64,000 bases of DNA from Candidatus Omnitrophota bacterium (GCA_023247705.1 JAHFFY010000008.1:664-64663), one strand, 5' to 3'; positions 3,153 through 46,909 are shown, counted from the first letter of the stretch. Notes: generated by a model from the sequence alone, not told the origin. Numbers and translations: made by a program.

Positions 3153-3626
3153 AAAAACTCCTAAATTTTAAATCAAATAAAAAGACAAGTTATTCTAGCC
3201 AAAATCAATTCGGTTCGCAACCACTTTTGTCAATACTTGCTTTATGTGTTATACTTTTGCTGAAAATGACCAATGAGAATGTTTCTTGTTCTTTCCCAAA
3301 GAAATAATAAAGTCAAAGGTAAACTACGTCGAAAGCGTAGGGCCCCTAGATCAAATGTCATCTATCTGATCCAGGGCGGTCGTCAAAAATCGATGACCGA
3401 CAAAGCCTCGAACCTAAATCTCGCTAACTAGTACTTTGTCAAACCCATTTTTAATAGTTGATCCCTCTATACTTTGCAGGAAATCAATTATTAAAAACAA
3501 AATTGACAAAGTACTAGCTAGATATGGTTGTCCGGCTGCCGTAATCTTTAATAATAAAGATTCCGTTTAATCATCTTTCAGCCCTTCTTTCGCAGAATAC
3601 CTTTGCGCAATATAAAGGGAAGAAAG

Positions 3627-3884
3627 ATGAAAAAAAATTTTATTATCGCATTGATAACTCTTAGCCTATTAAACGGCGCACCCACTCAGTCCGCGGTTAC
3701 GACTCAAGCCGTTTATAAAATATCGGTGACGATTCCTCCCCATGTGGATATCACCGGATTTGACCCTTTAGAGAAAGAAAAGCCTTCTCTTTCCCCTTCA
3801 GAAAATCAAATTAAAGAAATCACGACCGAAGAGACATTGCGCAATAACTTCCCTATTATATTAAAAACAACGACTATCAAATGA
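3627..3884 (+). CDS. Small secreted hypothetical protein
   Basis: ATG at 3627 preceded by GGGAAG RBS; signal peptide MKKNFIIALITLSLLNGAPTQSA. The ORF track's upstream TTG start at 3603 is less likely. Confidence 0.35.
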   Translation: MKKNFIIALITLSLLNGAPTQSAVTTQAVYKISVTIPPHVDITGFDPLEKEKPSLSPSENQIKEITTEETLRNNFPIILKTTTIK

Positions 3885-3973
3885 AGAATCCGTCAGGAAT
3901 CTTCAGAGCGCCTCGATGGATATCCATCGGGGCGCAGTCCTTATTTGCGTAAATTTCTTAATCTGAAAAAGGA

Positions 3974-6832
3974 TTATCGTTTTAATTTAAGCGGGACATG
4001 GAGAACATAGGTCGTCCCTTCTTCCAGATGGAAGGTATTCGAGATTTTAATTAATGGAAGATATTCCATAGGAAGAGAATTCACATCGATAAAAACGGTG
4101 TGTTGCCCCTCGGAGATATCATTAAAGAAATAAACGCCCTGAAAATCCGTGATGGTTGTTTCCCTATTATCCAGAGATATCTTAATCCGGGGAATGAGGA
4201 CATCCTGGCTGTCCAATTGCCCATTATGATTTTGATCATAATAGACAACCCCATAAATCCCGGAATGCGACGTTAAGGGAAAATTGAATTTTTGCGTCTG
4301 GTGATGGAATATTTCTACATTTTCATACATTGAGGTAGAAACGATATATTTGTCCGGAACTGTTGCAAGATCCAAATCAATCGAAATCTTTTTCGCCCTC
4401 ACCTTCTTCTGATACCATCCGGTATGATCACTCACCACGGTGCTGTTGCCTACTCTGATCGTGACCCCCGATACCCCCGGTTCATCGCGGTCCTGTATTT
4501 TATTTTGGTTCAAATCATTAAAAACCGTTCCCTCAATCGTTCCCACCGGACTCCAGTTAAAAGGCAAATCCCAGGACGAGCGGATCCCCCAGCGGATATC
4601 GGCTTCATTGTAAGCGCTGCGGCTGGGACTCTCGGCCCAGACATTTCTCAAACGGGTATCAATAAAAAACTGGAAATCATCCGTCGGCCGAAAATTAAAA
4701 CCGATATTTCCCGTCAAGCTATCTTCTCCGGCCAGGAAACTCAACAGGCTGTCCGCTTCCTGTTCGTTGCGGTAAAAAAGCCCCATATCCATCATCCAGA
4801 ATTTACTTAATTCTTTGGAATAGTTCAACCCCGTTGAAAACACCTGCGGGTTTAAATGATCCCCGGACAATTTTTCTTCCAGCCAAGAATATTCATAATC
4901 GGCGAAATAGGATAAATTTTTAATGAGCGGGAGACGAAAACCAGCCGTTGCGGAATACCGGTCAAATTCCGAAGAAGGAGATAACGTAAAACGGCTTCTC
5001 TGATAGTTCACCCCGATAAACGTCGATAAATACCGATCGTTTAGAATACGAAACATCTTGGATAAAGTATTATTCAACCTGAAATTCCGATGAGGCGACA
5101 GGACGCCTGGGGTATCTTGATAATAAATAGAACTTCGCCAATTGGAATCTTGGGACAAAGCGACTCCGGCCGAAGTGCTCAAATCGTAATTCAGACTGTC
5201 CGGATGATCCTGGTTAGGCAAAAAATTGTCTTGATATAAATCGAGATTGGAATAAACATCAAAATGAGGACGGGTAAAACTCCAGACAGCGGTTCCTCCC
5301 ACTTCTCCTCGATTGGCAGGAAAATTGGTCACCGTGACAAAATCTTTATCAATGTCTCTAAAATTCAAATTTAATCTGTTTTTCGGTGTCCCAAATTCAG
5401 TCCGTATTAAACCAGCAAAATTATCTTCATCATAGGCGAGTTCACTGGCTAAAAACGCTTTGGCGAATTTATGTTCCGTTACAACCGAATAAGCTCTCTT
5501 TTTTAAATAATCCGCTCGATGTGATCCATACCCTTGAGCATAATTAAGAGAATATTGATGTGAATCATGCGGGAACAAAGTCACCCTGCCTCCCTCAATA
5601 AACGATTCAACCCTTCCAAATGGATCTGAAGCAAGATACCCAAAAAGAAGACTCTCCCTTCCCCATAACACTGTATAATTAATGTTGCGATTAAAAGCTT
5701 CTGCGTTTAGAAGAACTCCTCGAAAATATTTTCCTTCCAAAGTCAAAGGAGAAAAAGCTTGAGAGGCGTCAAATCCTCTTATACTAAAATTTTTAAAATT
5801 CCCGATCTGACCATTCGTCAGGCCGACTGAATATCCTGTCACCTCGGTCGATTCGCCGAACCGGTTAAAAATCGTATACGTATCAAAATTGCCATACGGA
5901 GTATTTCCGGCAATATTGGTTATTTGGGTGAAATGTAGATTCTGCCGTTCGAGATTCGGTAGGTTATTTCCAATATAATAGGAACTCCAGTCCGAGGCAT
6001 AACCGAATCGAAACGGCTCGATCACTTCATATTGCGCGGCCTTTTGTTGCGCTGGCGTCAGAATCTGCGCTGGGAAATTGACATTGACATTAAACGTCCA
6101 TCGTCCCCGCGCATCCCAGACGTGCAGGAACGTGCCGCCTCTCAACAATCCGATGATTTTAATACGATTCGAATCAAGTCGCTCTACACTTATGAATTGC
6201 GGAGAAACCACCAAAAATTTTTCAATATTCTCGCCTTTAAGAGTAACCTCTTGCTGAATTTCCAGGTTTAAAGCCGTATCCGGCTGGGTCAACCAAAGTT
6301 CATCGTTTAAATCAATATCTTTACTTTGAATCGGTGCCGCCGAGACTGCCCCTGGGGATCCCTTCGCCTGAGCCCGAGGCGCTGGCCATTCTCCCATCGT
6401 GGATACGCTGGGGGCTGCTTGCTTTTTTTGTCTTTCTCCTTTTTTCGGGGGAAATAATTTTTGTTTGGTCGTTCCAGTGGTCTCTTCGGTGGGAACTCCG
6501 GGAGGAAATTCTTTCGTTTTTGTCTGAGGAAAAGGTTTTAGCTCAACGATATTGGATTTCAATTCGACAATCGCCACGCGTCCTTCCTGGATCCGCTTGA
6601 CGAAATTGACCCATTGCCTCGGCTCATCCGAGGACGGATTGGCCAAATGAGCTAATTTAAAATACAAAATTGCTTTTTCGTATTGTTCTTGATTGATTGC
6701 GTCCTTACCTAAATCAATCAGCTCTTTAAAAGAAAGGGATTCTTCACCCTGACTATAAGCCGATAAAGAACAAAAAAAGAGAAAAAGAGTACAGACCAAA
6801 ACAATGGAGAAAAATTTTTTTTGCATAATCAC
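3974..6832 (-). CDS. Large outer-membrane protein: signal peptide, TPR-like N-term, Pro-rich linker, T2SS/T3SS-pilN-like domain, beta-barrel, two C-terminal SdrD-B/CNA-B-like domains (usher-like candidate)
   Basis: 952 aa; LVVSPQFISVERLDSNRIKIIGLLRGGTFLHVWDARGRW resembles the CpaC/secretin N-domain; Y/F/N/G/S-rich middle; GTVFNDLNQNKIQDRDEPGVSGVTIRVGN and GVVYYDQNHNGQLDSQDVLIPRIKISL are CNA-B-type repeats; no secretin signature. Confidence 0.6.
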   Translation of the reverse strand: MIMQKKFFSIVLVCTLFLFFCSLSAYSQGEESLSFKELIDLGKDAINQEQYEKAILYFKLAHLANPSSDEPRQWVNFVKRIQEGRVAIVELKSNIVELKPFPQTKTKEFPPGVPTEETTGTTKQKLFPPKKGERQKKQAAPSVSTMGEWPAPRAQAKGSPGAVSAAPIQSKDIDLNDELWLTQPDTALNLEIQQEVTLKGENIEKFLVVSPQFISVERLDSNRIKIIGLLRGGTFLHVWDARGRWTFNVNVNFPAQILTPAQQKAAQYEVIEPFRFGYASDWSSYYIGNNLPNLERQNLHFTQITNIAGNTPYGNFDTYTIFNRFGESTEVTGYSVGLTNGQIGNFKNFSIRGFDASQAFSPLTLEGKYFRGVLLNAEAFNRNINYTVLWGRESLLFGYLASDPFGRVESFIEGGRVTLFPHDSHQYSLNYAQGYGSHRADYLKKRAYSVVTEHKFAKAFLASELAYDEDNFAGLIRTEFGTPKNRLNLNFRDIDKDFVTVTNFPANRGEVGGTAVWSFTRPHFDVYSNLDLYQDNFLPNQDHPDSLNYDLSTSAGVALSQDSNWRSSIYYQDTPGVLSPHRNFRLNNTLSKMFRILNDRYLSTFIGVNYQRSRFTLSPSSEFDRYSATAGFRLPLIKNLSYFADYEYSWLEEKLSGDHLNPQVFSTGLNYSKELSKFWMMDMGLFYRNEQEADSLLSFLAGEDSLTGNIGFNFRPTDDFQFFIDTRLRNVWAESPSRSAYNEADIRWGIRSSWDLPFNWSPVGTIEGTVFNDLNQNKIQDRDEPGVSGVTIRVGNSTVVSDHTGWYQKKVRAKKISIDLDLATVPDKYIVSTSMYENVEIFHHQTQKFNFPLTSHSGIYGVVYYDQNHNGQLDSQDVLIPRIKISLDNRETTITDFQGVYFFNDISEGQHTVFIDVNSLPMEYLPLIKISNTFHLEEGTTYVLHVPLKLKR

Positions 6833-6876
6833 AGCTGTGCAGGTGAGCCTTACGGAATTTCTTTAAAAAATCCAGA

Positions 6877-7683
6877 TCAATCTCTTTCTTCTAGGATCTT
6901 TGTTTCTGATGCGGATGATTTTGTAAAATCGATCTCTTTGACGACCGATTTTCCATCTCCCAGATCAAAGGTAATGACCATCGTATACTTCCCTAAAGAA
7001 AGATCCTGACTGAAATGCGCCCGGAACTTCGTTTTTTCTCGAGGAGGGATATAAAATTTCTCTACCTCGCCCCGGTCGACAACCACCCCATCCTTTCCCA
7101 AAATATAATAAACCCCGTTTGGAGTAATAATGACATCGCCCGTGTTTTCCAATTCTCCAACAACGGTATTTTGTTCAGCTGATAATCGGCCGACCCTGCC
7201 CTTCTTAATACTGTCGGTCGTTTCCAGAAAAAAAAGACTCCCAACGCGCGTGATGATCTGAACTCCATTGATATCTTTCATTTCCTCGGAAAAATTCTCA
7301 AAGAAAAGAACGCCATAATATCCGCCGTGCGCGTCTTCCGGGACTTTGATGGAATAGGAAATCTTCTTTTTAGATTTTGCCGGAAGAACAAAATCCTGCG
7401 GCGTAAAATGGACCCATTTCGCGATGGAGTTATCCATCGAACCGGCCGGCAAGAAATTTTTCTTCCCATCGAAAGGCGGGAGATAAACAAAATCTTCCCA
7501 GTAGGCCCTGACTTTCACATCTTGATCTGACGTATTATTGAGATTAATGATTCCTTGAGCAGAACCACCGGGGGCAACAGAGAACGAGACCTTGCCTTCT
7601 TCAATTAATAACTGAGCAAACACCGTCTGAAGAGGGAACAAAACAACATTAAAGAATAAACCAAGGAGTAAAAATTTTTTCAT
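6877..7683 (-). CDS. Putative PapD-like periplasmic pilus chaperone
   Basis: 268 aa with signal peptide; GIINLNNTSDQDVKVRAYWEDF and GYYGVLFFENFSEE resemble the PapD/CsuC motifs (xIxNxGxxxxxVxVxxW; LFYFNxxEIPP); size fits a two-Ig-domain chaperone. Confidence 0.5.
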   Translation of the reverse strand: MKKFLLLGLFFNVVLFPLQTVFAQLLIEEGKVSFSVAPGGSAQGIINLNNTSDQDVKVRAYWEDFVYLPPFDGKKNFLPAGSMDNSIAKWVHFTPQDFVLPAKSKKKISYSIKVPEDAHGGYYGVLFFENFSEEMKDINGVQIITRVGSLFFLETTDSIKKGRVGRLSAEQNTVVGELENTGDVIITPNGVYYILGKDGVVVDRGEVEKFYIPPREKTKFRAHFSQDLSLGKYTMVITFDLGDGKSVVKEIDFTKSSASETKILEERD

Positions 7684-7759
7684 ATTCTAACTTTAAGAGG
7701 GCAAGTATCCACTTGCCCTCTTCTTTCTATCAATGATTTCTGAACTTTTAACCGACAGA

Positions 7760-8416
7760 TTATGTTGCCGTCGCTGAAATCAACAATGTCCCGGTATAAC
7801 TCCCGGGCTTGTCGGCGTTTGAAAACACCTCTGATCCTGCCGGTTCCGCAGGAACGGCATTGACATCGCCGGTGTTAACACCAAGGTACATTCTAAGCCA
7901 TCCTCCAGAGGTCTCAGTGGACGTGATGGCCTCTCCGCTAATATTCTTGAGCAGTTTTTTGGGCCCATGGTTTCCCATCAAGGCGTCGCTGGTGATATCG
8001 TTTCCATTCTGATCTTTGCCAACAAAAGTGGTTTTGGCGAAGGTAATGGTTGCCTTTGACCCCAAACCGCCGTGTGTTGTTCCAACGTTGGGATGGTTCG
8101 CACTCTCGGTATAAGTGATATTAGCGCTCGGACTCCCGGCTCCACCTGTGGCGACGACATCAATCGCAAAATAATGGTTGGGTAGATAAATATTGATATT
8201 CGGAGTAAAAGTCATCGGATCAAAACTGAGGCTCGATCCAGTAACCGAGGTGAACTGCTTAGTGTTTGTATTGACGGATGAAACGATGATCCCTGCTCCG
8301 GTTGCCGCCGGCACACTCGCCGATACAGTAAACGTCTGATCCACCGCAAAGGTCACTGGAGCTAGCACGAGTAATCCTCCGATCACCAGACCTAAAATCA
8401 TTAATTTCTTTCTCAT
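7760..8416 (-). CDS. Secreted pilin-like subunit (spore-coat-U / Csu-type)
   Basis: 218 aa with signal peptide; alternating-hydrophobic N-terminal strand AVDQTFTVSASV; C-terminus GSYTGTLLISATAT resembles CsuA/B GDYKDTLLVTVNF. Confidence 0.5.
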   Translation of the reverse strand: MRKKLMILGLVIGGLLVLAPVTFAVDQTFTVSASVPAATGAGIIVSSVNTNTKQFTSVTGSSLSFDPMTFTPNINIYLPNHYFAIDVVATGGAGSPSANITYTESANHPNVGTTHGGLGSKATITFAKTTFVGKDQNGNDITSDALMGNHGPKKLLKNISGEAITSTETSGGWLRMYLGVNTGDVNAVPAEPAGSEVFSNADKPGSYTGTLLISATAT

Positions 8417-8534
8417 TTTGTTTCTCCTTTCGTAAGTAGCCAGTGAGATAGTTAAATAATTGTTTCATTCTAAAGACTTCTCACTGTTTTGCAACAACAA
8501 ATACCAGTAAATATCAATAAATTTTATCCCTTCA

Positions 8535-9974
8535 TTAAATTTCATTCAAAGAATACATAAACGCCGCCGTATATTCCCCGGCCTTCAATTCGAGAGACGG
8601 ATCCAGTCTATATAAGACTTTAAACTGGGAAGACTCCCCCTTATTATTAGAGAAGAATACCGGGGCACTTCCTTCCGGGACGGTGCTAAAACCCGCAAAT
8701 TCAATTCGCCCAGGATTATCTTTAAGCAGTTCCACCTTCATCGAAAACAAATCCGGCGCGATATTCTCTCCCGTCTGATTGGTCAAACGCGTCTGAACAT
8801 TTTGGGTCACCATATACGGACGGCCCAGGTTCGAGAACACCCTGACATTAATCTCTTTCATTTGAGGCGTCGTGCCCGGAATGAGACCGGTAAAATGAAC
8901 GCCTCCTTGCGGATAATCCACCTCCATGTTAAAGATCGGTGAAACATCAATTAGAAAATTGACCGGTATAATTTTGGAAAACTGTTCGCTTTCGACGACG
9001 TATCGTATTTGGCCCTGGTAACTGCCCGCTTTGGCATCAACAATTTTGTCTTTCTGAATTTCAAAGTTGATCGCAACTGAATCATTTTCCTCTTGCGAAG
9101 AATACACAAGAGAGCGTTTCTGGATGAATTCATTAAGATTCCCGGAAAATCCACCTCCTTTGTTTGTGGTGACACAGTTAATACTCGCAGGGTCAATGGG
9201 CTCACTCAAATCATTTTGCGGGGGCGTGTCCATTTCCTGAAAAATCCGGATCACCCCTCTATTGCCGGAAAACGAAAACTTAATGAAACCTTGATAATCG
9301 TTGCTTGTGCCCGTCCCCAAACGGATTACGCCTTTTCCTCCGGACGATTCAAGCTCAAAATTTTTATTTTCAGCGATATCCAGGGCGATATCCAAAAAAG
9401 CGTCCTGCAGGGAATTTCCCCCGATCGGTCTGACCGTGTAAATGATTTTCCCTAAAAAATTTCCCCCCTGAGACAACTGGTCTTTGTCGATCCGATAGAT
9501 CACGGTGAATGAATCATCGTCCCCGTTAGGGTTCGAGGTGTAGAGGAGCTCTTCTCCATACGCTAAACTGGTTTCATTTTGGGCATATAACGTTCCCAAA
9601 CTGTTTGAGCCGCTGAGCGTATAATTTTTGATAGCTTCTTGATCAAGGATCGTCCCTTTTTCATTGATCAAGGGGTTTTGAACGCGCTGAAAAACCTGAT
9701 ACTGTTGATGTTCATCCGAGGTAATGCGTAGACGCACTTCTTTGCTCACCACGGCGGAAGCGGAATCGATTGGACCGAAACGCAGACTGTTTCCCCCCTC
9801 CGAAGGATTAACGGACAAATTCATGGCGGCATATAAACTGGTAGGGGCCATCAGAAAGCTGCACAGCAGGATCGCGCAGGCGATGTCCTTTATTTCTCTC
9901 AATGCTAATGATTGATCTGGATTAGATAGAAATATCATGGATATATTATACTCGAAATCGTCTGATAAAAGCAA
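8535..9974 (-). CDS. Secreted protein with two pilin-like (SCPU-type) domains; candidate tip adhesin or major subunit
   Basis: 479 aa; signal-like segment IACAILLCSFLMAPTSLYA; two domain ends of the form AGSYQGQIRYVV and AGEYTAAFMYSLNEI, matching the C-terminal motif of the 218-aa protein. Confidence 0.5.
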   Translation of the reverse strand: MLLSDDFEYNISMIFLSNPDQSLALREIKDIACAILLCSFLMAPTSLYAAMNLSVNPSEGGNSLRFGPIDSASAVVSKEVRLRITSDEHQQYQVFQRVQNPLINEKGTILDQEAIKNYTLSGSNSLGTLYAQNETSLAYGEELLYTSNPNGDDDSFTVIYRIDKDQLSQGGNFLGKIIYTVRPIGGNSLQDAFLDIALDIAENKNFELESSGGKGVIRLGTGTSNDYQGFIKFSFSGNRGVIRIFQEMDTPPQNDLSEPIDPASINCVTTNKGGGFSGNLNEFIQKRSLVYSSQEENDSVAINFEIQKDKIVDAKAGSYQGQIRYVVESEQFSKIIPVNFLIDVSPIFNMEVDYPQGGVHFTGLIPGTTPQMKEINVRVFSNLGRPYMVTQNVQTRLTNQTGENIAPDLFSMKVELLKDNPGRIEFAGFSTVPEGSAPVFFSNNKGESSQFKVLYRLDPSLELKAGEYTAAFMYSLNEI

Positions 9975-12134: not shown

Positions 12135-12231
12135 TTATTGAGCTTTTTCTTTCCGACTCTAAATCTCTCGCTGGCGATACCGACGTTGGTGAGAGATTTA
12201 GAGTTTCGTTTAGTAGAAAGAAGCTCAATAA
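12135..12231. repeat. Palindromic MITE/REP-like element, family A copy 1 (97 bp, TIR TTATTGAGC/GCTCAATAA)
   Basis: Near-perfect inverted arms TTATTGAGCTTTTTCTTTCCGACTCTAAATCTCTC / GAGAGATTTAGAGTTTCGTTTAGTAGAAAGAAGCTCAATAA around loop GCTGGCGATACCGACGTTGGT. Copies at 57408-57504 and 19170-19267. The atpC stop codon (12225-12227) lies in the right arm. Confidence 0.6.
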
Positions 12232-12506
12232 CTGGGATCAGATTTTTCTTCGATGGTTTCCAGGAGGACCGTCACCTTATTCTTCAACACTTCCAGAAAT
12301 CCTTTTCCTTTGGAATGAAAAACGGCATTGGAATCCTTCTCGCCACGAACCACAATTTTTCCCGGCACTAAGGTGGTCATCAGGGGGGCATGTTCAGCGA
12401 GGATCCCTAAATAGCCTATTTCTCCCGGGACGGTGATGGATTCAGCGCTGCCTTTATAAAGCGTTTTTTCCGGAATGAGGATATTAAGAAAAAATGACTT
12501 CTGCAT
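12225..12506 (-). CDS. atpC: ATP synthase F1 epsilon subunit, short form (N-terminal beta-sandwich only)
   Basis: 93 aa; follows atpD; epsilon N-domain pattern; the C-terminal helical hairpin is absent and the stop codon is inside repeat A. Confidence 0.8.
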   Translation of the reverse strand: MQKSFFLNILIPEKTLYKGSAESITVPGEIGYLGILAEHAPLMTTLVPGKIVVRGEKDSNAVFHSKGKGFLEVLKNKVTVLLETIEEKSDPSY

Positions 12507-12511
12507 GGAGA

Positions 12512-13960
<1,449 letters not shown>

Positions 13961-13967
13961 TTATAGT

Positions 13968-14078
13968 TTCCGAGTTAGCGAGTTTAACGGGTTCACGAGT
14001 TGATTGGCCCGTCGCTCAATTCGAGAACGGTCTAATAAAGAACTCGCAAAACTCGTCAACTCCGAAACTCGCGAACTC
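13968..14078. repeat. CGAGTT/AACTCG-motif palindromic element, family B copy 1 (atpG-atpD spacer)
   Basis: Left half rich in GAGTT (CCGAGTTAGCGAGTTTAACGGGTTCACGAGTTGA); right half is the reverse complement (AACTCGCAAAACTCGTCAACTCCGAAACTCGCGAACTC). Related copy at 59331-59412. Confidence 0.45.
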
Positions 14079-14083
14079 TAGAT

Positions 14084-14956
14084 CTAATTCTTCAACGCCT
14101 CCGCCCCGGAAATAATTTCAATCAACTCCTTGGTGATCGCCGCTTGCCTGGCGCGGTTGCGCAATAACGTATATTTCGCGATCAAATCTGTGGCGTTCTG
14201 TGTCGCTTTGTCCATCGCCGTCATCCGCGCGCCGTGTTCACCGGCGGAATTTTCCAGCAGCGTATAATAAATCTTATAATAAAAAAACGTCTGGACCAAA
14301 GACTGCAGAAGCTCTTCCTGTCCCGGTTCCAAAATATAATCGGAGGCCGTCGCCCCTCCTTGATCCAACAGCTCAGATGACTGGATCGGCAGGATTTTTT
14401 CGATGGCCGGCACTTGCGAAAGCGGATTATTGAATCGATTGAATGCAATATACACCTCATCACAATTTCCGGAACAAAATGCCTCGCGAAGATCATCCGC
14501 CATTCTTCTCGTCGCCATAAAATCGAATTTGGTCGCCAGGCCTTCATAATTCTTTTTAATCGCCAAATGGTTTCGAAAGGCCATCCACCCCCGCTTGCCG
14601 CAACAGATCATCTCAATGTGTTCATAACGCCCTTTCATCTCCTTGAGCCAGTTAAAAATTTTTTTTATCAGATTATTATTAAACCCGCCGCATAATCCTT
14701 TATCAGATGAGATAACAACGATCAGTAATTTCTTAACCGGATACCGCGCAAACAAGAGCGGATGGGACGTTGAATCGACGGAAGCGCTGAGCCGGGCGAT
14801 CAATCCGGTCAGTTCCCGCGCGTAATGTTTGGCATTGATCTGTTTGTGATGGATCTGGCGTAATTTGCTCGCCGACACCAATTTCATCGTGCGCGTCATC
14901 TTTTTGGTGTTCGCGAGGCTCTTTAACTTCGCTTTGTATTCTTTGATGGTTGGCAT
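14084..14956 (-). CDS. atpG: ATP synthase F1 gamma subunit
   Basis: 290 aa; N-terminus MPTIKEYKAKLKSLANTKKMTRTMKLVSASKLRQ; ends with TAG-I-TAG double stop. Confidence 0.95.
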   Translation of the reverse strand: MPTIKEYKAKLKSLANTKKMTRTMKLVSASKLRQIHHKQINAKHYARELTGLIARLSASVDSTSHPLLFARYPVKKLLIVVISSDKGLCGGFNNNLIKKIFNWLKEMKGRYEHIEMICCGKRGWMAFRNHLAIKKNYEGLATKFDFMATRRMADDLREAFCSGNCDEVYIAFNRFNNPLSQVPAIEKILPIQSSELLDQGGATASDYILEPGQEELLQSLVQTFFYYKIYYTLLENSAGEHGARMTAMDKATQNATDLIAKYTLLRNRARQAAITKELIEIISGAEALKN

Positions 14957-15022
14957 GGGGTGAAAAAAATGTTAGATGTTAGATGCTGGCTGTTAGACGC
15001 ATCTAACGATTATCAATAATTC

Positions 15023-16582
15023 CTATCCCAACGACTGAAACGTCCTCTTGAAATCCGTCAGGAGCTTATTCAATTCTTGTTTGACCGGTTCGGTCAACGC
15101 CTTTTCTTTATAAAAAAGTTTGACAAACTCGGCGTACGTCGAATCCAGCGCCTCAAACAGTTTGGCTTCAAAATCCGGGATCTTCTTGACTGCAATATCA
15201 TCCAGATAACCGTTGGTGCCCGCAAAAATAATCACCACCTGTTTGACGACCGCCAGCGGAACATGGATCCCTTGTTTGATAACCACCATCAAACGCTGAC
15301 CGCGTTCCAGTTGCCGTCGGGTAGCCGCGTCCAAATCGCTGGCGAATTGCGAAAAGGCCGCCAGTTCACGGTACTGCGCCAGATCCAGACGCAAGGTCCC
15401 GGCGGTTTGTTTCATCGCCTTGATCTGGGCATCGCCGCCGACACGCGAAACGGAAATCCCCGGGTTGATGGCCGGACGCTGACCGGCGTTAAACAAATCG
15501 GATTCCAAAAAAATCTGACCATCGGTGATCGAAATAACGTTCGTAGGAATGTACCCGGAAACGTCGCCGGCCTGGGTTTCGATAATCGGCAACGATGTCA
15601 AACTGCCCCCGCCTTTTTTGCTGTTCATTTTGGCGGAGCGTTCCAACAGACGGCTGTGCAGATAAAAGATATCGCCCGGATACGCCTCTCTTCCCGGTGG
15701 ACGGCGCAAAAGCAACGACAACTGACGGTACGACTGGGCCTGTTTGCTCAAATCATCATAAATAATCAAGGCATGCCGGCCGCTGTCGCGGTAAAACTCG
15801 GCCATCGCAGTGGCGGAATAGGCGGCCAAAAACTGCATCGGCGCCGGATCAGAGGCAGTCGCCGCCACAATCGTCGTGTATTCCATGGCCCCATATTTTT
15901 TTAATGTCTCATAAATCTCAACGACGGTCGAACGTTTTTGTCCGATCGCCACATAAAAGCAGTAAACGCTTTCGCCGCGCTGGTTGATGATCGTGTCGAT
16001 CGCCAGGGCCGTCTTGCCGGTCTTGCGGTCGCCGATAATCAGCTCGCGCTGTCCGCGACCGATCGGCGTCAACGCATCGATAACTTTGATTCCGGTCTGT
16101 AAAGGTTCATGCACATCCTGGCGTTCAATAATGCCGGGGGCCTTCGATTCAATCGGACGAAATTCCTTGGCCTGAATCGGCGCGTTTCCATCGATGGTCA
16201 CTCCCAACGCGTCCACGATCCGGCCCAACAAACATTCTCCGACCGGAACCGATGCCAAGCGCTGGGTCCGTTTCACCTGGTCGCCTTCCTTAACGCTGAA
16301 ATCCTCGCCGAAGACCGCAACCCCGACGTTGTCTTCCTCCAGGTTCATGGCCATACCGATGACCCCGCTCTCAAACTCAACCAACTCCCCCGCCATGACC
16401 TGAGCGAGACCATAAACCCGCGCAATCCCGTCGCTCATGCTTAACACCGTTCCGACCTCATAACTGGTGGCCCGGGTTTCAAAGTCTCCTAATTGTTTTT
16501 TGATAATGGCTGAAATTTCTGAGGGTTTAATATCCATAGGGCCCTGGCTCTCCTTCCAAAAAAATCGCTCTCGCGTGATCAT
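15023..16582 (-). CDS. atpA: ATP synthase F1 alpha subunit
   Basis: 519 aa; Walker A GDRKTGKT; alpha-subunit similarity. Confidence 0.97.
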
Positions 16583-46417: not shown

Positions 46418-46909
46418 TCACGGCAGCTTCTGTGCCTCTTCTTTAAATTCTTTGATCAAGTCCTTCATCTCTTCGGTCGCCTCGCTCCCGTAACCTTTCA
46501 ACGTCTCGACCTCCCGTGCCGCGGCCTGGACATACGCCTCTCCTAAATATTCGCGGGCCTCGGGAAAACGCGGACGCAGCCGCAGGGCTTTTTGATAATT
46601 TTCGATCGCATGATCAAGATCGCCGGTCTTGCGCTGGGTGAAGGCGAGCATGTTGAGAACATCAGGGTTCGTTGGTTCACGGCTGTAGGCCTGTTTGAAA
46701 TATTCCAAGGCGCCTTTGTAATCTCCGGCATGGGAGGCGGCCTTGCCTAAATCGTACAAACTTTTTTCCGGCGCGGCCGGCGCTTCTGCGGCCGATGGCT
46801 GGGTTATGGGGTTCGGGCTGGGGGAAGAATCAGACGGACGGCAGATTAAAAAAATTGATCCAACCACAACGGGACCAACGATCATCCAATGATTTTTTAA
46901 CATATTCAT
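46418..46909 (-). CDS. Secreted TPR-repeat protein
   Basis: 163 aa; signal peptide; three TPR units (GDYKGALEYFKQAY..., NMLAFTQRKTGDLDHAIENYQKAL...). Confidence 0.65.
   Translation of the reverse strand: MNMLKNHWMIVGPVVVGSIFLICRPSDSSPSPNPITQPSAAEAPAAPEKSLYDLGKAASHAGDYKGALEYFKQAYSREPTNPDVLNMLAFTQRKTGDLDHAIENYQKALRLRPRFPEAREYLGEAYVQAAAREVETLKGYGSEATEEMKDLIKEFKEEAQKLP

Follow-up and report, generated by a model that had tools for sequence, protein, structure and literature searches.

What is encoded by a compact cluster of four genes in the genome of a Candidatus Omnitrophota bacterium, and might its products assemble a surface fibre? An earlier note on the window (the whole stretch of 64,000 nucleotides analysed here) had read this locus as an archaic, spore-coat-U-type chaperone-usher (CU) pilus system with a non-canonical outer-membrane component. 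Our analysis supports a CU-like fibre system with such a component and discards the spore-coat-U label. We consider it reasonably probable (about 0.6) that the operon encodes a divergent CU-type pilus machine producing a thin surface fibre. The system is found throughout the uncultivated phylum Omnitrophota and is not an SCPU system.

A self-contained four-gene module

The ORFs confirmed four co-oriented genes on the minus strand, encoding proteins of 479, 218, 268 and 952 aa as previously described (Table 1), and every peptide motif quoted in the earlier note, including LFFENFSEE, was found in the translations. The sequences show a Sec signal peptide on each of the four proteins, which thus enter the periplasm. 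The survey of homologous neighbourhoods proposed in that note recovered each of the four gene families in 46 to 50 of 50 Omnitrophota loci. The same gene order is kept in ~40 of them, contig ends cutting most of the exceptions, and strict synteny of the module extends to ~40–50 Omnitrophota species. The gene of the 952-aa protein comes directly after the chaperone gene in 49 of the 50 loci and in more distant variant clusters; related variant clusters contain several subunit paralogues and two chaperones, like real pilus operons. The flanking genes are not conserved, no neighbour family being present in more than 11 of the 50 loci. The cluster is a self-contained module whose recurrence is far beyond chance. 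Three of the four operon proteins had no match in curated pilus families and, in line with the claim that this architecture is undescribed, we found no account of it in the searchable literature.

Table 1 Coordinates of the genes, protein domains and candidate regulatory elements (positions in the window).
Feature	Position	Strand	Basis or remark
479-aa secreted protein gene	8535..9974	-	Mechanical ORF; first gene of operon
218-aa secreted protein gene	7760..8416	-	ORF
268-aa chaperone-like protein gene	6877..7683	-	ORF
952-aa usher-like outer-membrane protein gene, whole	3974..6832	-	ORF
TPR-like helical unit, residues 31-82	6587..6742	-	PDB designed-TPR match by family profile; helices 35-82 in model
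Pro/Lys/Thr-rich linker, residues 90-167, predicted disordered	6332..6565	-	pLDDT 25-42
pilN-type beta domain, residues 171-252	6077..6322	-	Pfam PF13629
Beta-barrel, ~26 strands, residues 275-755	4568..6010	-	26 DSSP strands in model
Two SdrD-B/CNA-B-type beta sandwiches, residues 763-950	3983..4546	-	Pfam PF17210, model
Promoter-like site TTGCTT-18-TATAAT	9945..9974	-	Consensus match only; just upstream of first gene
Intergenic region before 218-aa gene, two promoter-like sites	8417..8534	-	Consensus matches only
12-bp GC-rich hairpin, gap between 218-aa and chaperone genes	7695..7722	-	Intergenic segment ~-26 kcal/mol
12-bp palindromic GC-rich hairpin	3908..3935	.	Between 952-aa gene stop and convergent small ORF

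Two families of candidate fibre subunits

Besides its signal peptide, the 218-aa protein has a conserved strand at either end: F-x-V-S-A-x-V-P-x-A-T-G on the N-terminal side and, running up to the C-terminus, G-x-Y-x-G-T-L-x-I-x-A-T-x-x. Conservation within the family peaks at the termini (0.59 and 0.67, versus 0.43–0.47 in the middle), and the C-terminal motif begins exactly 14 residues before the end in 32 of its 38 members. Its relatives are all Omnitrophota proteins, without a Pfam domain. From its sequence, it looks like a putative major fibre subunit.

The 479-aa protein, with a family represented in 46 of the 50 loci, consists of three mutually homologous domains (D1, residues 50–195; D2, 196–345; D3, 346–479; hhalign probabilities of 99.2, 99.3 and 96.5%), each closed by a G-x-[YF]-x-G-x-I-x-Y strand motif. 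Two pilin-like domain ends had been proposed; the quoted motifs are present, but the homologous domains are three. In D3, this motif begins 14 residues before the end of the protein, a register common to this family and that of the 218-aa protein. The true start of the ORF probably lies downstream of TTG 9974, a codon overlapped by the promoter-like site at 9945–9974. Public gene calls start the gene at ATG 9938, yielding 467 aa; we favour TTG 9902–9904 (456 aa) because the homologues measure 450–468 aa and because of the signal peptide MREIKDIACAILLCSFLMAPTSLYA|A. This three-domain protein is probably a tip adhesin or, alternatively, a putative minor subunit.

No SCPU or other pilin Pfam model matched any of the 38 members of the 218-aa family or the 36 members of the 479-aa family at E ≤ 1. 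The profiles of both families failed to match solved pilins, and that of the 479-aa family found no match in the PDB. These results, together with an arginine-to-glycine replacement in the chaperone (see below), led us to abandon the spore-coat-U/archaic label. The lack of pilin-family and solved-pilin matches for both subunit families also speaks against a pilus.

A soluble chaperone related to EcpB and to CPR proteins

The 268-aa protein, which has a signal peptide and lacks a membrane anchor, consists of two Ig-like domains, and its predicted structure shows a PapD-type two-domain fold. Its F1 strand (GGYYGVLFFE, residues 120–129) is followed by a flexible F1-G1 loop (residues 131–145) and a G1 strand bearing R146-V-G148; P95, R204 and Y211 are conserved in the family. 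None of the 34 family members matched PapD_N or PapD_C in Pfam. The PapD-like character proposed earlier is nevertheless upheld by the predicted fold and by the family profile, which matches EcpB (HMMER, E = 0.015; hhalign, 89.6%, E = 1.9e-6 over 189 columns). In the EcpB alignment, P95 lies opposite Pro60, the sole residue invariant throughout the CU superfamily (PMC4654587). Within the G1 donor strand, R146-V-G148 faces R136-I-G138 (EcpB precursor numbering), and Y211 faces the carboxylate-anchoring Tyr169. The two chaperones thus have in common the superfamily proline, an R-[IV]-G motif in G1 and a tyrosine in domain 2, as well as an N-x-G-N motif. However, Arg89, the subunit-carboxylate anchor typical of archaic/alternative chaperones, aligns with a conserved glycine, a difference from non-classical CU chaperones that weighs against the pilus interpretation. 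Among CU chaperones, the sequence and fold matches were to the non-classical CfaA, EcpB and CsuC.

At the sequence level, the chaperone is closest to two groups, proteins of the DUF916/WxLIP type and chaperone-like proteins that are anchored in the membrane of CPR bacteria. It is homologous along both domains to anchored two-domain proteins encoded in Saccharimonadia and Patescibacteria loci (hhalign, 99.7%, E = 2.4e-26) and far closer to them than to EcpB (E 2e-26 versus 2e-6). These anchored proteins agree with the published description of PamC and PamD, the chaperones of the Pam pili in CPR bacteria. Pam pili contain PamA/PamB pilins reported as exclusive to CPR, and their donor-strand-exchange filaments have been solved by cryo-EM (bioRxiv 10.64898/2026.03.03.709456); the CPR loci were matched to the pam operon by description. 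The secreted neighbours of the anchored proteins end in G-x-Y-x-x-T-V-x-Y-x-A-T in the same register (counted on printed C-termini), and in Pam and Omnitrophota subunits alike the termini and donor strands are best conserved; homology between the subunits of the Omnitrophota and CPR loci was not significant (probability ≤19%). Several differences separate both systems. Pam chaperones possess a C-terminal transmembrane helix, whereas none of the 34 Omnitrophota proteins has a transmembrane helix or other membrane anchor; PamA and PamB are two-domain pilins of 39–55 kDa donating a linker strand, whereas the 218-aa protein has the size of a single domain; and Pam has no trans-envelope component, in cells devoid of outer membrane, whereas the Omnitrophota loci always include an usher-like barrel. 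The chaperone bridges Gram-negative pilus chaperones and the newly described CPR pili.

An usher-like outer-membrane protein

As anticipated in the earlier note, the 952-aa protein matched neither the Usher nor the Secretin (PF00263) Pfam family, and we found no sequence similarity to ushers. However, it is more usher-like than had been claimed: the top Foldseek matches of its model are full-length FimD/PapC ushers (E 1e-19 to 1e-14; other barrels, 1e-8), with an alignment colinear across the N-domain, the large barrel and the two C-terminal sandwiches. The modules proposed for this protein were all recovered. They comprise a single TPR unit at residues ~31–68, seen with the family profile (Pfam TPR_2 being below threshold); a disorder-predicted Pro/Lys-rich linker of 41 to 134 residues across the family; a pilN-type domain of constant length (78–83 residues), with T2SS-T3SS_pil_N (PF13629) on residues 186–252 at 28.5 bits versus a 23-bit cut-off; and the C-terminal sandwiches, with SdrD_B (PF17210) on two stretches (50.8 bits) and a match to SdrD in the PDB (E 1.6e-10). 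The barrel measures 480–492 residues in all 39 family members, with a longest loop of 17–20 residues, and has ~26 strands in the model, which had been suggested as a check, versus 24 in ushers. A plug domain or plug-sized insertion is absent from all 39 proteins and, therefore, gating must differ from that of known ushers. The lack of usher sequence similarity and of a plug, and the strand count other than 24, are at odds with a CU-type machine.

The two-residue turns that alternate with longer loops suggest that both barrel ends are periplasmic. From barrel parity, the pilN-type domain would then be in the periplasm, at the position of the usher N-terminal domain, and the SdrD-B sandwiches would lie where the usher CTD1 and CTD2 sit. 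Unlike in ushers, the N-domain is of pilN type and stands behind a TPR unit and a long disordered linker, and the C-domains are of SdrD-B type. Resemblance to other systems is limited to single domains: PF13629 is the N-terminal domain of CpaC-type secretins, but, in contrast with the Tad/Flp secretins CpaC/RcpA, the protein lacks the PF00263 domain and is modelled as a monomeric ~26-strand barrel, not as a multimeric secretin; likewise, the sandwiches resemble those of staphylococcal SdrD, but would be periplasmic instead of forming a surface stalk.

Putative expression signals

A strong AAGGAG Shine-Dalgarno sequence (consensus match) is located 7 nt ahead of the ATG of the 218-aa gene. The hairpin downstream of this gene is a putative intra-operon attenuator or mRNA stabiliser; comparably strong hairpins, unrelated in sequence, follow the subunit gene in ~24 of ~35 testable related loci (folds read by eye), with a T-run after the hairpin in several of them. 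The hairpin beyond the 952-aa gene is probably a bidirectional terminator closing the operon.

A proposed assembly pathway

The non-classical CU pili (E. coli ECP, EcpA-E; CFA/I, CfaA-E; Acinetobacter Csu) follow an operon logic, shared by the Omnitrophota genes, in which a subunit and a chaperone are combined with an outer-membrane pore and a large adhesin of several domains. The Omnitrophota operon also resembles them in its soluble two-domain chaperone, with the same predicted fold and sequence similarity to EcpB, and its subunits have conserved N- and C-terminal strands like CU subunits. In contrast, its adhesin-like gene comes first, whereas the E. coli order is ecpA-B-C-D-E, none of its components belongs to a CU Pfam family, and Omnitrophota fall outside the published host range of CU systems (PMC4654587).

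If the operon encodes a pilus machine, the soluble chaperone would capture the major subunit and the three-domain protein (456–479 aa) in the periplasm, which all of them enter by their Sec signal peptides. Its G1 strand (G-V-x-I-V-T-R-V-G) might pair with the C-terminal strand of the subunits (G-x-Y-x-G-T-L-x-I-x-A-T), whose free C-terminus, at a fixed distance from that strand, would lodge in the cleft formed by the two domains of the chaperone. The complexes could then dock on the pilN-type domain and the two SdrD-B sandwiches of the 952-aa protein, standing in for the usher NTD, CTD1 and CTD2. Polymerisation would proceed by donor-strand exchange, with the N-terminal strand of the next subunit (F-x-V-S-A-x-V-P) as donor, and the fibre would exit through the ~26-strand barrel. 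An N-terminal donor extension is not obvious in the three-domain protein, which would therefore be the first to enter and occupy the tip as adhesin. The hairpin and the strong ribosome-binding site would ensure that the subunit outnumbers the assembly proteins. The donor-strand steps, the barrel passage, the tip position and the adhesive role are all inferred; the fibre likely serves in the attachment of these ultra-small bacteria to surfaces or host cells.

Alternative explanations

The best-surviving alternative, although unlikely, is a non-polymerising surface-display complex, equivalent in a diderm to the WxL cluster of Firmicutes, in which the DUF916-like protein would stabilise the small and large secreted proteins by strand insertion. 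These two proteins, as monomeric or oligomeric adhesins, would be exported or held by the outer-membrane protein without any long fibre. No polymerisation is known for WxL proteins. WxLIP_PGBD/DUF916 is the sole curated family matched by the chaperone family (24 of 34 members, best E 2.2e-7), and a solved WxLIP is among the top fold matches of its model. Moreover, the operon encodes one small, one large and one WxLIP-like, two-Ig-domain protein, as is typical of WxL clusters (small WxL, large WxL and WxLIP, i.e., DUF916-DUF3324-TM), where, according to AF2 predictions, the WxL domain receives a hairpin strand from DUF916 (PMC10599100). However, WxL-domain Pfam matches are absent from the 38 small and 36 large proteins, the 34 chaperone-like proteins have no anchoring helix, the setting is not the peptidoglycan surface, and the operon adds an outer-membrane barrel. 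Furthermore, a model without polymerisation leaves no role for the N-terminal strand conserved in the small protein. The hairpin and strong ribosome-binding site suggest a structural subunit made in many copies, several subunit paralogues occur in variant clusters, and filaments are indeed formed by the homologous CPR system.

It is quite improbable that the operon is an ordinary archaic (sigma, SCPU/Csu-type) CU system diverged past the reach of Pfam. Csu/SCPU subunits presumably have C-termini resembling the 218-aa motif (G-x-Y-x-G-T-x-x-[IV]-x-A-T), and the chaperone matches CfaA, EcpB and CsuC. In addition, no other CU class is phyletically as widespread as the archaic one (PMC4654587). 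Nevertheless, the absence of SCPU, PapD and Usher matches, the missing Arg89, the plugless barrel with its pilN-type and SdrD-B-type domains, and a chaperone nearer to CPR proteins than to EcpB all argue against it.

Still less credible is a cell-envelope matrix or sheath, with the 218-aa protein forming a surface layer or a periplasmic/outer-membrane lattice instead of a pilus and the barrel protein as its anchor, the TPR unit and linker reaching the peptidoglycan or inner membrane. The signs of high expression of the 218-aa gene, and a TPR unit and variable-length linker suited to span the periplasm, would agree with this. However, fibres built by strand exchange are typified by a dedicated PapD-like chaperone and an usher-like domain order, the Pfam search found no S-layer or SLH domains, and a match to SlpA was weak and generic. 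Finally, that the barrel protein is, for instance, a large-pore uptake channel or SdrD-B-displaying adhesin, only incidentally located beside three functionally unrelated genes, is extremely improbable given its near-constant place after the chaperone gene, the even strand count and short periplasmic turns that put its SdrD-B domains in the periplasm, and the Foldseek preference for full-length ushers by more than 5 orders of magnitude.

A four-gene module conserved across Omnitrophota

The four minus-strand ORFs of the cluster were recovered by ORF listing with exactly the coordinates and lengths proposed in an earlier note on this DNA, and every peptide motif quoted there was present in their translations. 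When one genome per species was scanned with a profile of the 268-aa chaperone-like family, 50 loci of Omnitrophota were recovered, a few carrying wrong labels, together with 28 loci from Saccharimonadia and Patescibacteria. By tblastn, the gene order three-domain protein, small protein, chaperone-like protein and barrel protein was found in ~40 of the 50 Omnitrophota loci, most of the departures from it being interruptions by contig ends. When all ORFs of these loci were clustered, each of the four gene families occurred in 46–50 loci, the next family occurred in 11, and no fifth conserved gene was found; the four genes thus form a self-contained module placed in varying genomic contexts. Homologues of the 268-aa and 952-aa proteins showed 28–54% identity, and the named ones all belonged to Candidatus Omnitrophica/Omnitrophota. 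No paralogues of the cluster genes were found elsewhere in the window.

None of the four proteins passed the cut-off of any curated pilus, chaperone or usher family and their public copies are mostly unnamed or 'hypothetical', so that surveys of adhesion genes in Omnitrophota miss the locus. The main papers on this phylum discuss only type IVa and Tad pili and giant ORFs/proteins as adhesion structures. Full-text searches retrieved no paper linking Omnitrophota with chaperone-usher systems, and literature searches found no earlier description of the cluster, in agreement with the suggestion that its architecture is not a described one. According to PMC4654587, the range of chaperone-usher pili takes in only Proteobacteria, Cyanobacteria and Deinococcus-Thermus. 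From the anatomy and synteny of the operon, the homologies detected and the folds of two of its components, chaperone-usher-type assembly is the best-supported reading, to which we assign a probability of about 0.6.

Coordinates of ORFs and genes in the window and of features predicted in the barrel protein
Feature	Position	Basis
Three-domain protein, putative tip adhesin (479 aa)	window 8535-9974 (-)	ORF listing
Small protein, putative major subunit (218 aa)	window 7760-8416 (-)	ORF listing
Chaperone-like protein (268 aa)	window 6877-7683 (-)	ORF listing
Outer-membrane barrel protein (952 aa)	window 3974-6832 (-)	ORF listing
Barrel protein: TPR-like helices (preceded by a signal sequence)	residues 35-82	AF2 model
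Barrel protein: disordered linker	residues 90-167	AF2 model
Barrel protein: pilN beta domain	residues 171-252	AF2 model
Barrel protein: 26 beta strands	residues 275-755	AF2 model, DSSP
Barrel protein: two beta sandwiches	residues 763-950	AF2 model
Convergent 93-aa ORF	window 3603-3884 (+)	
F-type ATP synthase genes (epsilon, beta, gamma, alpha)	window 12225-16582 (-)	
Weak similarity to the TPR-like N-terminus of the barrel protein	window 46553-46765 (-)	

A soluble chaperone related to EcpB

The 268-aa protein had been described as having PapD-like chaperone motifs. Its family lies beyond the reach of the corresponding Pfam models, since PF00345 and PF02753 (PapD_N/PapD_C) matched none of 34 members at E ≤ 1, but the protein has two Ig-like domains in a boomerang arrangement, and the family profile reached EcpB in the PDB (E 0.015). 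Profile-profile comparison (hhalign) with E. coli EcpB gave 89.6% (E 1.9e-6), the 189 aligned columns extending across both domains; the same comparison with FimC gave no match. Single-sequence PDB searches with each of the four proteins of the operon returned nothing significant.

The EcpB alignment allowed the functional positions of these chaperones to be located. A proline kink in the D1 strand (Pro59 in CsuC, Pro60 in EcpB) is presented in PMC4654587 as the sole residue invariant across the whole chaperone-usher superfamily, and EcpB Pro60 aligned with P95, conserved in at least 90% of the Omnitrophota family. That source also describes the non-classical carboxylate anchor as a highly conserved arginine of the F1 strand (Arg89 of both CsuC and EcpB) together with a tyrosine and an arginine of domain 2. 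In the 268-aa protein, the position of Arg89 is occupied by a conserved glycine (G124, in GGYYGVLFFE), the carboxylate-anchoring Tyr169 of EcpB aligned with the conserved Y211, and Arg148 aligned with T187, with an invariant arginine (R204) nearby. The anchor is therefore partly present, without its defining arginine. The G1 donor strand of EcpB (R136-I-G138, precursor numbering) aligned with a conserved R146-V-G148 and alternating hydrophobic residues, an N-T-G-N motif is common to both proteins, and low confidence in the predicted structure is confined to the F1-G1 loop. A C-terminal hydrophobic tail or membrane anchor was found in none of the 34 family members. The 268-aa protein is thus a soluble PapD-fold chaperone, related to the non-classical chaperone-usher chaperones yet outside them. 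It belongs to a large superfamily, with 9075 representatives at E ≤ 1e-3, including 214 at E ≤ 1e-30.

Relationship with the Pam and WxL systems

Pam pili of CPR bacteria are filaments of the pilins PamA and PamB, whose structures were determined by cryo-EM and which assemble through donor-strand exchange; their chaperones PamC and PamD are PapD-like proteins with C-terminal transmembrane helices, no trans-envelope machinery is involved, and the pilins are reported to be exclusive to CPR bacteria (bioRxiv 10.64898/2026.03.03.709456). Four of the CPR loci retrieved by our scan were inspected and apparently contain two anchored PapD/DUF916-like genes each, with C-terminal transmembrane helices, flanked by genes for secreted proteins of ~200 aa and 360–650 aa. 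By our count along their C-termini, the small secreted proteins end in G-x-Y-x-D-T-V-T-Y-T-A-T-T-N, with the motif and register of the Omnitrophota subunit. The loci match the published Pam operons by description, in which the PapD-like chaperones with their C-terminal helix adjoin secreted Ig-like proteins.

The Omnitrophota chaperone family aligned with 23 anchored two-domain CPR proteins at 99.7% (hhalign, E 2.4e-26, 204 columns). The CPR family itself did not detect EcpB, which makes the Omnitrophota chaperone a sequence intermediate between the Pam-type chaperones of CPR bacteria and those of Proteobacteria. The likeness of the secreted proteins is limited to the C-terminal strand, with a probability of ≤19% between the subunit families and the CPR subunits. 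The two systems also differ in how they relate to the envelope: Pam chaperones are anchored by transmembrane helices and work without a trans-envelope component, whereas none of the 34 Omnitrophota chaperones is anchored and an outer-membrane barrel gene follows the chaperone gene in 49 of the 50 loci.

Among the loci of the scan, L054–L078 from Saccharimonadia/Patescibacteria (e.g., L056:9009-14317 and L057:8640-13021) look like Pam-type pilus operons, with small (~200 aa) and large (440–650 aa, Laminin_G_3) secreted proteins carrying a C-terminal G-x-Y-x-x-T-V-x-Y-x-A-T. L052 and L053 have the same operon as the Patescibacteria locus L051, with membrane-anchored chaperone-like proteins; L053 is OZ246394.1, a chromosome of 1.6 Mb deposited as 'uncultured Gammaproteobacteria'. 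Either this label is a taxonomic error or a small-genome proteobacterium has this CPR-type system.

A second relationship concerns Firmicutes. WxLIP_PGBD/DUF916 was weakly matched by 24 of the 34 members of the chaperone family (best E 2.2e-7, mostly below the curated cut-off), and similarity to DUF3324 was faint (2 of 34). A WxL cluster comprises a small protein and a large one plus a single WxLIP, whose DUF916 is predicted to insert a strand into WxL proteins (PMC10599100). This similarity raises the possibility that the Omnitrophota operon encodes a WxL-like complex displaying its secreted proteins without polymerisation. The WxLIP, however, combines DUF916 and DUF3324 with a transmembrane segment, whereas the Omnitrophota chaperone has no transmembrane helix and its neighbours no WxL-domain match; we regard such a display complex as unlikely, though deserving some weight. 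The WxLIP paper and the Pam preprint mention neither each other's system nor Omnitrophota, a link of DUF916/WxLIP with Pam or PapD-type chaperones appears in neither, and full-text searches found no paper linking DUF916 with PapD.

These connections tentatively suggest, at odds we would put somewhat below even, that the operon is a missing diderm link, and that proteobacterial chaperone-usher, CPR Pam and Firmicutes WxL/WxLIP systems derive from one ancient chaperone-assisted strand-complementation system. If so, the plug-less, usher-like protein of ~26 strands, which carries pilN and SdrD-B domains, would represent an ancestral fibre-secreting outer-membrane pore or else one recruited independently, with a novel gating.

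Putative fibre subunits

The 218-aa family has a signal peptide and two conserved terminal strands, F-x-V-S-A-x-V-P-x-A-T-G at the N-terminus and G-x-Y-x-G-T-L-x-I-x-A-T at the C-terminus, which are its best-conserved segments (0.59 and 0.67, versus 0.43–0.47 in the middle). In 32 of its 38 members, the C-terminal motif starts exactly 14 residues from the C-terminus. The conserved terminal strands and this constant register are indirect signs of an incomplete Ig fold, which the N-terminal strand of an adjacent subunit would complete. The 218-aa protein lacks cysteine. Its gene is preceded by a strong AAGGAG ribosome-binding site and followed by a 12-bp GC-rich hairpin; by our reading of the folds, ~24 of the ~35 testable related loci have a similar hairpin in this position, unrelated in sequence, several with a T-run. 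A stem-loop 3' of the major-subunit gene is familiar from the pap and fim operons, and the small RNA FimR2 is annotated directly 3' of fimA in E. coli K-12.

The gene upstream had been proposed to encode 479 aa with two pilin-like domain ends. The ORF from the TTG at 9974 exists, but translation probably starts downstream: public gene calls start the protein at the ATG at 9938, homologues measure 450–468 aa, a start at TTG 9902 would produce a textbook signal peptide, and bases 9945-9974 read as a promoter-like TTGCTT-18-TATAAT. The repeated domain ends are real, but they belong to three domains, mutually homologous (hhalign 99.2, 99.3 and 96.5%), each of which closes with a strand G-x-[YF]-x-G-x-I-x-Y. 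The final motif is found 14 residues before the C-terminus and so shares its register with that of the small subunit. Since the mature N-terminus runs directly into the first domain, we tentatively place this protein, putatively an adhesin, at the tip of the proposed fibre.

The assignment of both proteins to the archaic SCPU pilins failed: with E ≤ 1 as the threshold, none of the 38 members of the 218-aa family and none of the 36 of the 479-aa family matched the SCPU model or a fimbrial one. Their family profiles found no pilin in the PDB, and hhalign of both families found nothing against FimA, EcpA, EcpD and FimH and nothing significant against the chaperone domains. A profile search of 5.8 billion proteins recovered only Omnitrophota relatives of the 218-aa protein, all devoid of Pfam domains, and thus no bridge to a known pilin family. 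Even between the 218-aa family and the domains of the 479-aa protein, only the C-terminal 12–13 columns aligned, not significantly. An archaic SCPU system that has merely diverged could account for the kinship of the chaperone with EcpB, but with this absence of SCPU matches and the glycine in place of Arg89 we find it improbable. A sheath or matrix built from the 218-aa protein appears slightly less probable still; the PapD-fold chaperone and the usher-like domain order of the barrel protein point instead to a strand-exchange fibre.

An usher-like barrel protein without a plug

The domains proposed for the 952-aa protein were all recovered: PF13629 (T2SS-T3SS_pil_N) covers residues 186-252 (28.5 bits, cut-off 23), PF17210 (SdrD_B) matches twice (50.8 bits), the family profile clearly finds one TPR-like unit in the PDB, and the Pro-rich linker is present and predicted to be disordered. 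Sequence comparison gave no link to ushers, as the Pfam Usher and Secretin models did not match, the family profile found no usher in the PDB and hhalign against FimD and EcpC remained below 1% probability. The AF2 model (pLDDT 84) presents a different picture. DSSP counts 26 strands in the barrel region, some of which may belong to a hairpin folded into the lumen, compared with the 24-stranded barrel of ushers. Foldseek placed full-length FimD or PapC at ranks 1–11, 13 and 14 (E 4e-19 to 3e-9, 764–847 columns; for the top 11 alone, E 4e-19 to 5e-14 and 766–847 columns). Compared with the FimD barrel alone, the E-value was 1.2e-7, versus 1e-8 for the best non-usher barrel; it is thus the flanking domains, aligned colinearly, that raise full-length ushers above other barrels. 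The model has the domain order of ushers: an N-domain, a large barrel and two C-terminal beta sandwiches.

The barrel has a constant length (480–492 residues) in the 39 family members, and its longest inter-strand loop measures 17–20 residues in all of them. With no loop longer than 20 residues there is no plug domain, in line with the earlier claim that a canonical usher plug is missing. Two-residue turns alternate with longer loops; under the rule generally applied to outer-membrane proteins, such parity would place the pilN domain and the SdrD-B pair both in the periplasm, where the N- and C-terminal domains of ushers sit. The 952-aa protein is thus usher-like in layout and not a member of the Usher family.

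Two other identities were rejected. The protein is not a secretin, as it has no secretin domain (PF00263); only the N-terminal pilN domain matches, and the remainder models as a monomeric barrel. Nor is it an inverse autotransporter that displays its SdrD-B pair, since such a protein would have a much smaller barrel and the parity puts the C-terminus in the periplasm. Considering its usher-like layout and its near-constant position behind the chaperone gene, we deem it very improbable that the barrel protein is unrelated to its neighbours.

A putative pathway for fibre assembly

Under chaperone-usher-type assembly, all four proteins would be exported by Sec, and the soluble chaperone would capture the subunits through its G1 strand and carboxylate-binding cleft and hand them over to the barrel protein's periplasmic domains. 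Polymerisation by donor-strand exchange would follow, the growing fibre being extruded through the ~26-strand barrel devoid of plug, presumably with the three-domain protein at its tip in an adhesive role.

On this reading, the system belongs to a known kind, with a strand-complementation fibre, a PapD-fold chaperone and an outer-membrane pore, and differs from it in three respects. Sequence searches place none of its components within the curated families of chaperones, ushers or pilins; the pore lacks a plug and is made up of other domains; and the chaperone appears to tie the chaperone-usher, Pam and WxL systems together, connecting pilus systems so far treated as unrelated. With this operon, the known range of strand-exchange fibres would come to include Omnitrophota, which are ultra-small and probably host-dependent bacteria, and its plug-less usher-like pore offers a new setting for the question of how a very large barrel stays closed and then opens for a fibre.

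Genomic surroundings and variant clusters

F-type ATP synthase genes lie ~2 kb upstream of the cluster. In CPR genomes, ATP synthase genes consistently adjoin pam operons (bioRxiv 10.64898/2026.03.03.709456). We rejected such a linkage here, as this adjacency is not conserved among the Omnitrophota loci and is therefore probably coincidental. Just past the terminator hairpin of the cluster, a convergent ORF encodes a protein with a signal-peptide-like N-terminus; it had no Pfam or NCBIfam match and its adjacency to the module is not kept in other loci. Elsewhere in the window, the region weakly similar to the TPR-like N-terminus of the barrel protein (E 0.004, 30% over 71 aa) presumably encodes another TPR protein.

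Two Omnitrophota loci (L023:9031-10000 and L048:9015-10000) gave no 218-aa homologue by tblastn and show a ~1-kb gap between the three-domain and chaperone genes, which may hold a subunit too divergent to detect. The full module was also found on contigs deposited as other taxa (L002, L004, L007, L009, L011, L017 and others), including 'Planctomycetales' and 'Planctomycetia' MAGs and, for L009, a 'Methanosarcinales archaeon' MAG; mistakes in binning or labelling are the probable cause.

Distant relatives of the chaperone occur in variant clusters (L079:3321-11713 and L081:2-4954; proteins P0345, P0351, P0393 and P0401), followed every time by a barrel protein with SdrD-B domains. One of these clusters encodes two near-identical small subunits and a further divergent one, alongside a pair of paralogous chaperones (265 and 293 aa). 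In another, the chaperone has extra Ig domains; relatives with one to four additional tandem Ig domains measure 367–568 aa.
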